A DNA stretch of 64,000 bases from a virus (taxonomy: Duplodnaviria > Caudoviricetes). A program made the translations under genes and the position numbers. Of this stretch, positions 17,638 to 53,568 are shown piece after piece. The stretch is taken from the IMG/VR virus record IMGVR_UViG_3300028186_000155; one strand, written 5' to 3'. The notes beneath the pieces were generated by a model. It worked only from the letters and a program-made list of their open reading frames with translations. It had not been told where the DNA came from and made no database searches. The stretch's first letter is position 1; the number at the start of each line of letters is the position of its first letter.

Positions 17638-18387
17638 TCAGTCACCACCGCCGCCACCGCCACCGGAATCACCGCCAGAATCGCCACCGCCGCCCCAGCC
17701 CCCGGAACGGTCGCTAGTGCTAGGCGAATCATCATGGCGCGAAGGCGTATAGGACGGCGCAGGGGCCTCATGGCGCGTTTCTGCCATAGGTTCGCGGTAT
17801 CCACGCGTTTCTGCCATAGGTTCGCGGTATCCAACCGAGGGCTGGTGCAACGCGTTGCCGGTGATTTGCTCGCGCTGTTCCGGCGTAACCTTCAGCGTGT
17901 GCGTTTCTACGCTGGCGCGCCGGTTGCCCACTGTCAGGTCGCCAGGGTAGCCCTGTGCACGCTCTAGCGCATCGTCGTAAACACCGTTGACGTTTTGCGT
18001 TACCGCAATGTGCGTTGCCATCAGAATTGCAGAATCATCTGGCGGCGTGCTTTGGATTTGACCGCTGCGGTATTGCTGGCCATAACGCGCCACCTTTTCC
18101 GCTAGGTGACGTTCCGGGTGCTGGACCGGCTGGGGCTGCTCGCGCTGCAATCGGCTCAGACGGTCCGTCACTTCGAAATATTCGCGGCGCACCGAATTGA
18201 TTTCGTTTTGCAGGCCTTCGATTTGTTTGTTCTTTGCCGCCAGTTCGCGGTTTACGCGCAGCAGTTCAGCCGCTTGTGATTCGTAGCCCAGTGCCAGCAG
18301 TTTGTAGTGCGACTGGAACTCGCGGAAACGGCGGGTGCCGAACAGCTTGTCGAACCAGTAAAAATTACGCGGTTTTTGGTGATCCAT
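17638..18387 (-). CDS. coiled-coil protein with Gly/Ser/Asp-rich tail
   Basis: GAGGA SD before MDHQK; ends GGWGGGGDSGGDSGGGGGGGD. Confidence 0.8.
   Translation of the reverse strand: MDHQKPRNFYWFDKLFGTRRFREFQSHYKLLALGYESQAAELLRVNRELAAKNKQIEGLQNEINSVRREYFEVTDRLSRLQREQPQPVQHPERHLAEKVARYGQQYRSGQIQSTPPDDSAILMATHIAVTQNVNGVYDDALERAQGYPGDLTVGNRRASVETHTLKVTPEQREQITGNALHQPSVGYREPMAETRGYREPMAETRHEAPAPSYTPSRHDDSPSTSDRSGGWGGGGDSGGDSGGGGGGGD
17774..17833. repeat. perfect 30-bp tandem duplication (GYREPMAETR x2)
   Basis: cgcgtttctgccataggttcgcggtatcca twice in a row. Confidence 0.95.
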
Positions 18388-27338: not shown

Positions 27339-27587
27339 CTAGTTATTAATCAACAGTGCAAAGCAAACAACGAACGCCACCATATTGAAGCGTTCGAATC
27401 GGGCAGTCCAACGGTCGGTATTGCGCCCTACAAAAAGCAGCGACACAACCGAAAGCAGGATTCCCAAGGTGCCGATAATGGCGTGCGCCATTTGGCTATT
27501 AAACGGAACGGCAATCCAGCACAGGCTCAGCAATCCAACGACGATGCCTGAATGGGGGCGCATAAGCAGTGCCCGCGTAGTTTTCAT
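27339..27587 (-). CDS. small membrane protein (3 TM)
   Basis: three hydrophobic segments; start 27587 or 27596. Confidence 0.7.
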   Translation of the reverse strand: MKTTRALLMRPHSGIVVGLLSLCWIAVPFNSQMAHAIIGTLGILLSVVSLLFVGRNTDRWTARFERFNMVAFVVCFALLINN

Positions 27588-27604
27588 TGTACCCATGGAA
27601 ACTT

Positions 27605-27703
27605 CCCTTAATCCGTGAGGGTGTAGGTAACAGGCAGCAAATGCCCAGCCACCAATCTGACAGACGGTCGCCCATCTGTCAACACTTGCCCACGGATCAA
27701 GGG
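27605..27703 (-). ncRNA. candidate multi-stem cis-regulatory RNA
   Basis: 15-bp outer stem, GCGA-capped 10-bp hairpin and a third stem; wobbles are G-U only on the minus strand. Confidence 0.5.
27654..27682 (-). promoter_or_regulatory. sigma70-type promoter within an inverted repeat
   Basis: TTGACA-N17-(TG.)CAGATT; TGACAGATGG-GCGA-CCGTCTGTCA inverted repeat. Confidence 0.6.
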
Positions 27704-27765
27704 CTTAGGCCCCAATGGGAGCGGCTATAGGCCTGTGCACACGCGCACGCGTATACAGGGCAGGG

Positions 27766-28245
27766 TTAGGCCGGGTCAACCCCTGCACCGGCTTCCTTGG
27801 CGTGCTCCAGCTTGGCCGCCACCTGCGCCAGTTGAACCACGGTGTATTGCTCGGGCGACATGAGATTGGCCAACCCGGCGTCAATGGTGAACCACTCGCG
27901 CTTGCGCAATTGGAACTCTTCCCAATCGCAATAGGAAGCGAACGAAGCGCGGAAATAAATCTCGCGCTGGATCTTTGCCGGGTGATCGTCGGTTGCTTCG
28001 TAGGACAATACTTCGTCGTAAATCTTTTCACGCAGGAAAACTTCCATGCCTGCCTCTTCACGGGTTTCCTTCTGCGCGTTTTGTGCCTCGGTCAAACCTT
28101 CCTCCAAACCACCTTTGGGCAAAACCCACAGGCCGGGGAATTTCAGTGACGTGACCAGCAACACTTTATTGGTATCGTAGGAAATGACGGCAACGCCGGT
28201 AGCGGTGCGGCTATAGTTCAGGTCTTCAGATTTAACGACGTTCAT
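27766..28245 (-). CDS. Nudix hydrolase, DIPP/Ap6A-type
   Basis: WVLPKGGLEEGLTEAQNAQKETREEAGM; WEE..LRKREWF. Confidence 0.9.
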   Translation of the reverse strand: MNVVKSEDLNYSRTATGVAVISYDTNKVLLVTSLKFPGLWVLPKGGLEEGLTEAQNAQKETREEAGMEVFLREKIYDEVLSYEATDDHPAKIQREIYFRASFASYCDWEEFQLRKREWFTIDAGLANLMSPEQYTVVQLAQVAAKLEHAKEAGAGVDPA

Positions 28246-34847: not shown

Positions 34848-35208
34848 ATTGAATTCCTTGAAGTTCCTGTAAGAGACGTATGTGGACGGTTTCGAGTCGT
34901 TCGCCACATATATCGTTTACAGTTTTCAGGAAGTCTTGCAATTCATCCAGTACCGTGAGGATTTCCACCGACAGGTCGGACCAGCGTTGATTGCCGCCCA
35001 GCGTCAATTCCAATTCAGGCCTACGTGTTAGGCCGGGGATAGAATGGCGCACGTGAGTTTCGTCAACATCGATTTGAGAAACGGCGAAACTTTCACGCGA
35101 TACGTGCACCTTGTGGCGCAGAACGGCAACGCGGCGGAACAGTTCCTGTGCGTAGGCCTGCCGTTCCATTGGCATCATGTCCTCGATTTCTTTCCGGCTG
35201 TATCTCAC
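34828..35208 (-). CDS. hypothetical protein
   Basis: GTGA-coupled. Confidence 0.65.
   Translation of the reverse strand: MRYSRKEIEDMMPMERQAYAQELFRRVAVLRHKVHVSRESFAVSQIDVDETHVRHSIPGLTRRPELELTLGGNQRWSDLSVEILTVLDELQDFLKTVNDICGERLETVHIRLLQELQGIQYGKAKS
34915..34925 (-). promoter_or_regulatory. AAACTGTAAAC motif copy 7
   Basis: exact 11-mer 67 nt upstream of the HTH gene; shares downstream GATA with copy 2. Confidence 0.55.
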
Positions 35209-47865: not shown

Positions 47866-47952
47866 CAAACTTCCTTAATTGCGTGAGTGTGAATGTAACG
47901 GCCATAGCAAAGGCCAGCCGCCACACTACCATTCGTCGGGTTGCCTTGTCAA
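47866..47952 (-). promoter_or_regulatory. sigma70-type promoter and leader homologous to 27599..27682
   Basis: TTGACA-N18-(TG.)TAGTGT, then GGCGGCTGG..TTTGC..GCC GTTAC..CTCACG..ATTAAGGAAGTTT. Confidence 0.7.
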
Positions 47953-53301: not shown

Positions 53302-53568
53302 CTAGCGTTTGTTTGCCAGTTCGCGTAGCATGGGCGCAGACCAGCGGGAAGTAATGAACTCGCAGCACCGGGCAATTTGGCCGTCAGTGGTGCCGGGATA
53401 ATAACGTTCGATTTCGGAACGTATGAATGTCGCTTTCGACTTTGGATATCGACGCACCAGATTGATAACGGCGCGGATAATTTCGAAATCGTCATCCGAC
53501 AAATCGGGTTCGGGGTCAGGCTGGTTGACGTACACAATGCCTCGACCTTTTGTGTGTATTTTTCCCAT
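53302..53568 (-). CDS. hypothetical protein
   Basis: GAGGA SD. Confidence 0.7.
   Translation of the reverse strand: MGKIHTKGRGIVYVNQPDPEPDLSDDDFEIIRAVINLVRRYPKSKATFIRSEIERYYPGTTDGQIARCCEFITSRWSAPMLRELANKR

Follow-up and report, generated by a model that had tools for sequence, protein, structure and literature searches.

Genes whose translation is blocked on long messages and released by an internal promoter are known from phage T4. In the case of e (lysozyme), soc, 49 and I-TevI, long transcripts hide the Shine-Dalgarno (SD) sequence, and an internal promoter frees it (PMC3014915). Three other described systems share individual parts with the locus presented here. The PeSL cassettes of RB49, phi1 and other T4-type phages are terminator stem-loops that are connected with recombination and mini-circles (PMC2839356, PMC4122927). 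The SAS/ESAS elements of the cluster K mycobacteriophages are of unknown function (PMC3203893). Finally, the early promoter of phage Mu has an IHF site (van Ulsen 1996, to the extent that this work is cited in PMC11043490).

The window analysed here, i.e. the whole stretch of 64,000 nucleotides, was assigned to a Lu11/HRDY3-like Pseudomonas jumbo phage and is part of a contig of 194,917 nt (~63% complete). The locus is a 169-nt spacer on the minus strand, leading from a Nudix hydrolase gene (28245-27766; Pfam NUDIX 9.5e-12, phrog_10313 1e-38) to an open reading frame for an 85-aa orphan membrane protein (27596-27339). The Nudix gene is the final gene of a long upstream operon, in which the gaps between genes range from -11 to 0. 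The order of Nudix gene, membrane gene and a 269-aa gene is common to HRDY3, Lu11 and most of the metagenomic relatives. The 85-aa protein, which would be the regulated product, belongs to a conserved family with approximately three hydrophobic segments by hydropathy, and matched no Pfam or PHROG family. Searches gave no support for a holin, a T4 Imm-like protein or any other named family. In particular, a lambda S-type dual-start holin is disfavoured by an extension (M-G-T-M) that has no basic residue and is absent in Lu11, and by the failure to match a holin family. Elsewhere in the window, an exact 30-nt tandem duplication is found at 17774-17833.

By analogy, the locus is best read as a translation gate of the T4 gene e type with reversed timing. 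As in T4, a 5′ arm carried by upstream-initiated RNA is predicted to hide the SD, and a promoter inside the structure would give a short mRNA. The SD-sequestering helix on the long transcript is obtained computationally here and in 13 of 21 orthologs, and the promoter, as marked by its conserved TTGACA and -10 elements, is located 3′ of the arm, which is therefore missing from its transcript. In T4, however, the nested promoter is late and silencing is early, whereas the promoter here is of the host sigma70 type and probably early. It is for this reason that we infer a reversed timing, and also that the locus is not a strict member of the T4 e-type class. Unlike in T4, the entire promoter fits between the two arms, which are separated by ~70 nt, the 3′ arm is formed by a box repeated throughout the genome, and the 5′ arm overlaps an IHF-like site.

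An earlier note, made from the sequence alone, had described this region as a multi-stem RNA hiding the SD on read-through mRNA and leaving it free on the transcript of the internal promoter. All four of its stems are present on the minus strand. The outer stem pairs 27703-27689 with 27619-27605. Its 5′ arm (27689-27703), an anti-SD sequence and partial inverted copy of the leader box, lies 7 nt upstream of TTGACA (27682-27677), and its 3′ arm covers most of the SD. A hairpin with a GCGA loop spans the -35/-10 spacer (27658-27681) and could form in read-through RNA only. The third stem lies at 27653-27626. The upstream hairpin (27732-27759) is an alternating purine/pyrimidine tract with the motif CGCGTATA, and appears to be an optional accessory of the cassette described below. 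At this locus the tract is present only in the phage itself, HRDY3, L318, L319 and L240, and is thus not conserved here; the motif also occurs ~100-140 nt ahead of other cassette boxes in HRDY3 and Lu11. Matches by blastn to SPN3US-like phages covered the short alternating tract only and were treated as chance. The region 27596-27766 folds at -81.5 kcal/mol on the minus strand (z -5.2; 0 of 200 shuffles as stable) versus -61.5 kcal/mol on the plus strand (z -1.4). In line with the earlier statement that no known riboswitch or ribozyme is recognisable, Rfam returned no family at the gathering score and nothing credible by E-value.

A BLAST comparison of the spacer with its own genome and with Lu11 revealed further partial copies and defined a repeated cassette. 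Its parts are, in order, TTGAC, 17-18 nt, often an extended -10, a small GC hairpin, an A/C-rich linker and a box of fixed length, TCACG-n7-GGAAGTTT, usually 2-5 nt ahead of ATG. By sequence, the spacer is one copy of what is probably an early-promoter cassette of Lu11/HRDY3-like jumbo phages. TTGACA, the third stem and the SD-bearing 3′ arm are therefore standard cassette parts, since the further copies share them. A weight-matrix scan found 7 boxes in the phage's own contig, 13 in HRDY3 and 11 in Lu11 (0-1 in shuffled genomes), and the reversed box pattern, used as a control, gave 0 matches. Among 78 distinct cassettes, selected to have a -35 at 62-82 nt from the box, the -35 to box distance is 63-70 nt in 73.

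At the locus, the sigma70-type promoter comprises the -35 hexamer TTGACA (27677-27682) and, after a 17-nt spacer, an extended -10, TG-n-CAGATT (27654-27662); from their position, transcription is predicted to start at ~27648-27646. A generic promoter scan missed this promoter, the -10 of which matches at only 3 of 6 positions. We take its conservation to override that miss: TTGAC as well as A2 and T6 of the -10 hexamer are invariant in the 20 aligned orthologs, so that the internal promoter proposed in the note gains comparative support. A hairpin at the 5′ terminus of the promoter-initiated mRNA (27632-27646) is common to all cassette copies and conserved in the orthologs. Across cassettes, two of its stem positions show 28 G-U/U-G against 1 C-A on the transcribed strand, in sequences that are related and hence not independent. 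The leader box, (ACAC)TCACG-n7-GGAAGTTT (27599-27622), has a core of ~20 nt and holds the SD; its first 15 nt are the 3′ arm (27605-27619). Sense versus antisense folding of the whole leader gives 32 vs 35. As for other identities of the box, an RsmA/CsrA site, judged by eye, was rejected because GGA is lost in the Lu11 copies, and boxA, a CRP half-site, parS and an other-strand sigmaE promoter likewise fit poorly by eye. TTGATC as a tandem -35 was also discarded, there being no -10 at 17 nt.

Several other cassette copies have features of their own. A paralogous cassette within the window (47867-47952, minus strand) has promoter, 5′ hairpin and box, and no anti-SD arm. A strict WATCAR-form IHF match (47963-47951, minus strand) overlaps its -35 and is not seen in its orthologs. 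Tandem cassettes ~170 nt apart are found at G000:C1 168339-168080 (L032), with orthologs L028, L035, L040, L051, L060 and L064; no ORF follows the first box, which may thus give a short non-coding or leader RNA. Downstream of the box in HRDY3 at 282090 (L020), and likewise in L043 near 5584, come its complement and a U-run; the result is a terminator-like hairpin, possibly an attenuator. In L325 (IMGVR_UViG_3300042010_000106), the cassette is kept after the Nudix gene and the next ORF is a different, 72-aa hydrophobic one; by analogy with PeSL-type shuffling, this could be an exchange of the gene behind an unchanged cassette. A second repeated motif, GGTACAA(T/G)(G/T)AAA, overlaps codons 2-5 of the membrane gene (27582-27593, minus strand). 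It has 6 copies in the phage's own genome against 0.08 expected, 6 in HRDY3 and 5 in Lu11; on the minus strand of the window, its first bases lie at 53302, 46819, 27593, 17598, 12075 and 3961. Every copy is on the coding strand and coincides with a gene start or lies close to one, often ~8 nt past a hairpin; the motif is kept at matching places in HRDY3 and Lu11.

The cassette resembles PeSL elements in being a repeated intergenic unit of sigma70 promoter, stem-loop and SD ahead of orphan genes, and some PeSL stem-loops are placed between -35 and -10, as at this locus. Unlike PeSLs, it is found in a phage that is not T4-type, the sequence upstream of its -35 is GC-rich and not an AT-rich tract, its shared hairpin follows +1 and has no U-tract, and it carries an invariant 20-nt box. 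With SAS/ESAS it shares an asymmetric repeated box that overlaps the SD just before start codons, is inverted in a few copies, and is conserved beyond what 16S pairing needs. The sequence and host are different, however, and in this cassette the box keeps a fixed distance from a sigma70 promoter. In the literature consulted, we found no paper on cassette or box elements in Lu11-like phages, nor a described transcription scheme for Lu11-like jumbo phages or literature naming HRDY3. The phage promoter cassette is apparently undescribed.

To follow the structure through the relatives, 21 orthologous spacers, including that of the phage itself, were compared. The metagenome scan contributed only 2 true orthologs, and a pattern search of viral contigs for arm, -35 and box gave almost entirely chance matches. 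In addition to the promoter positions given above, the 5′ hairpin core and the ends of the box are invariant in these spacers. The full structure of the earlier note leaves 70% of the alignment cells paired, with 81% for the outer stem, 61% for the spacer hairpin and 36% for the GGT extension. The inner stems consist of promoter sequence (-35, spacer, -10, discriminator). The spacer hairpin stem occurs in ~6 of the 21 orthologs, and its GNRA loop in this genome only. The covariation score of the whole structure falls below that of the shuffled control (491 of 500 shuffles reach it), and none of the 15 outer-stem pairs shows a two-sided compensatory change, the box side being invariant. With the 13 closest sequences as input, the only elements left in the RNAalifold consensus are a 10-bp outer stem, the 5′ hairpin and a 3-bp stem.

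These data bear directly on the alternative that the region is an independent structured ncRNA, as the note had also suggested, or a riboswitch-like three-way junction. The strong strand-specific folding in this genome speaks for it, as do some two-sided changes in the spacer hairpin among the ~6 relatives that have it. Nevertheless, a conserved multi-stem ncRNA is rejected because the inner helices are not kept (36-61% paired), covariation stays below control and the consensus fold is reduced. Moreover, the conserved bases are those of promoter and box, common to paralogs that lack the structure, and Rfam has no match. The alignment thus largely refutes this reading, which we regard as very improbable.

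In contrast to the inner stems, the predicted hiding of the SD recurs among the relatives. The energy needed to open the half of the box that holds the SD was calculated for three RNAs: the promoter-initiated form, the long form, and a long form whose upstream sequence had been shuffled. At this locus it is 4.2 kcal/mol on the short RNA, 12.5 on the long RNA and 4.7±1.5 in the shuffled-upstream control. Hiding on the long RNA beats all 30 shuffles (P<=0.03) in the 13 orthologs mentioned, among which L248, where there is no clean arm, does so only weakly; 2 of the 21 are borderline and 6 have no effect (Lu11, L245, L251, L319, L252, L325). Among the paralogous cassettes, only 1 of 21 reaches P=0.05, and the locus of that one has a second, inverted box. 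The 5′ arm pairs at 15 of 15 positions here, at 13-14 of 15 in most main-clade orthologs and at 6-11 in others. The outer stem is present in HRDY3 but was lost in the Lu11 clade, L319, L252 and L325, corresponding to about three changes on a Nudix tree in which several deep branches are poorly supported. Because it is lost in several lineages, the modelled occlusion would be dispensable, although widespread and specific to this locus. The central claim of the note, SD hiding on read-through RNA and not on the internal-promoter transcript, thus agrees with prediction, as does its point that formation of the outer stem is restricted to read-through RNA, given that the 5′ arm is upstream of the -35.

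Read-through itself is plausible because the upstream genes abut, no U-tract terminator is present in the 8 kb upstream of the locus in the three genomes scanned, and a candidate promoter lies upstream. The last is a candidate phage middle/late promoter motif, AAACTGTAAAC (34915-34925, minus strand), which is a possible source of read-through RNA. It is ~7.3-7.4 kb upstream of the locus in this genome and HRDY3, and is similar to a sequence that the Lu11 annotation labels 'putative middle/late promoter'. The spacer of the locus does not contain the candidate middle/late motif CTGTAAA. The phage encodes a sigma70-family factor (343-aa open frame, G000:C1 154320-154451, L336) that is a candidate reader of AAACTGTAAAC. 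The timing proposed earlier, on early and off later, would fit this anatomy. The metatranscriptome runs, which are assembled contigs with uniform coverage over tens of kb, are uninformative on strand, start and read-through. Coverage of the structured spacer is interrupted in one run of low depth, from which no conclusion follows.

The outer helix could instead serve RNA processing or termination (RNase III-type cleavage or a PeSL-like stop) and so uncouple the two operons. A helix of 15-19 bp does close in read-through RNA, and PeSL stem-loops overlapping early promoters terminate transcription in RB49 and phi1 (PMC2839356). However, no U-tract follows any stem of the locus and the conserved helix measures only ~10 bp in many orthologs, and we consider this explanation improbable.

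The 5′ arm also overlaps an IHF-like site, TAA-N4-TTGAT(C) (27695-27707, minus strand). TAA-N4-TTGAT is the reverse complement of the 13-bp IHF consensus WATCAANNNNTTR (PMC7581858), which the site matches at 12 of 13 positions; on the consensus strand the W is replaced by G. TTA of that strand, i.e. the TAA, is invariant in 21 of 21 orthologs though unpaired, the CAA/CAG part is kept, and L248 fully matches the looser WATCAR-N4-TTR. The site persists where arm pairing is lost, the changes in L319, L252 and L248 falling within N4. Lower weight is given to the most distant members, L248 and L325, where the site was picked by pattern. As the IHF-like site accounts for both, the conservation of TAA and TTGAT needs no RNA explanation. 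No phage-encoded IHF or HU was found, so any IHF would be that of the host. The early promoter of Mu, which is likewise host-recognised, also has an IHF-consensus site upstream, as far as the cited account of that promoter goes; unlike in Mu, the site here is predicted from sequence, at 12/13 and with a GC-rich flank. Strong IHF sites have an A/T-rich flank (see also PMC7581858), and the 5′ flank here is not A/T-rich.

This overlap changes how the G-U wobbles are to be read. They do occur on the minus strand only, consistent with the folding asymmetry, but the core wobble alone cannot demonstrate the RNA-level selection with which the note found them consistent: its G is an IHF consensus base, so that this wobble is not independent evidence, and the overlapping DNA consensus can by itself explain it. 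The IHF consensus does not, however, appear to account for everything. In the 12 main-clade sequences, the unpaired N1 varies (G/C/A), whereas the paired CCC and two C past TTGAT are nearly invariant, and one C-to-U change in the arm preserves a U-G pair. Lineages that pair carry a C, off consensus, at the final IHF position; the Lu11 clade, L248 and L325, in which pairing is weak or has been lost, carry A/T there. A double DNA and RNA constraint on the 5′ arm would fit these patterns best. L252 is a counter-example, as it keeps TTGATCCG and the C, yet its box no longer pairs.

Inverted boxes placed directly against a -35 occur at two other loci in this genome and HRDY3, one of them also in Lu11. 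The dual-box locus (G000:C1 ~150075-150180, L034; HRDY3 L026; Lu11 L011) precedes a 148-aa gene. Its promoter combines a poor -35 with a perfect IHF consensus in the spacer, an inverted box abutting the -35 and a direct box downstream, a layout like that of an activator or repressor site. The second locus (G000:C1 114986-115005, L033; HRDY3 L024) has a lone inverted box between a terminator-like hairpin and a TTGAC promoter, and no downstream partner box within the scan. In sequence, the inverted copies track the consensus of the box and not their partner, a hint that the box is perhaps read as DNA.

Less likely, in our view, is that the inverted repeat matters as DNA only, with an IHF site and a decayed inverted protein-binding box flanking the promoter and the RNA stem a by-product. 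A promoter flanked by two sites and boxes inverted against a -35 have just been described at other loci of this phage; in the dual-box pair, the 2-6 differences between the boxes fall almost wholly in the variable middle, and there are no G-U pairs. IHF cores near boxes number 3 in the phage's own genome against 0.11 expected, 14 of the 78 cassettes lack an ATG within 10 nt of the box, and one natural variant of the box, that of L226, is exactly reverse-complementary to the arm. What argues against a DNA-only role is the composition of the arm: the AAGTTT half of the box is missing from it in every ortholog and the TCACG half in many of them, and its conserved part is exactly the middle that pairs with the SD. 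The GC-rich flank and non-consensus last base are also unfavourable for IHF.

We therefore weigh these observations in favour of a nested-promoter translation gate, a cis-regulatory promoter/leader cassette without a free RNA gene in which the SD is hidden on read-through RNA, and give this reading a probability of roughly 0.55. In this scheme, host sigma70 RNA polymerase would start a short mRNA at ~27647, consisting of the small hairpin and then the leader box with a comparatively open SD, which would allow synthesis of the 85-aa membrane protein, probably at an early stage. Transcripts from the upstream Nudix operon would additionally carry the arm upstream of the -35. The arm would pair with the box over 10-15 bp and hide the SD, leaving the membrane gene untranslated from these longer messages. 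The extra inner stems, which are lineage-specific, would only help loop closure, and the same arm would double as an IHF-like DNA site beside the promoter.

A broader proposal, which we put forward tentatively and consider rather unlikely, is that the box is an operator for a putative regulator reading double-stranded DNA. It would lie ~30 bp downstream of every early promoter and, at a few of them, inverted against the -35. At the present locus, one 19-bp stretch would then be both an IHF-bent promoter-control site and an antisense arm silencing the same gene on read-through RNA.

Taken together, the element is real, partly conserved and regulatory. Promoter-relieved SD occlusion is already known as a mechanism from T4, so the surprise is limited, and the locus offers a compact, testable case of a phage confining a membrane protein to one transcript class. 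For Lu11-like jumbo phages more generally, the cassette marks probable early promoters, and the inverted boxes and IHF-like sites point to a putative DNA-binding regulator. If the operator box and the dual use of the 19-bp stretch hold true, a phage membrane protein would here be under an early-to-late switch that combines DNA and RNA control.
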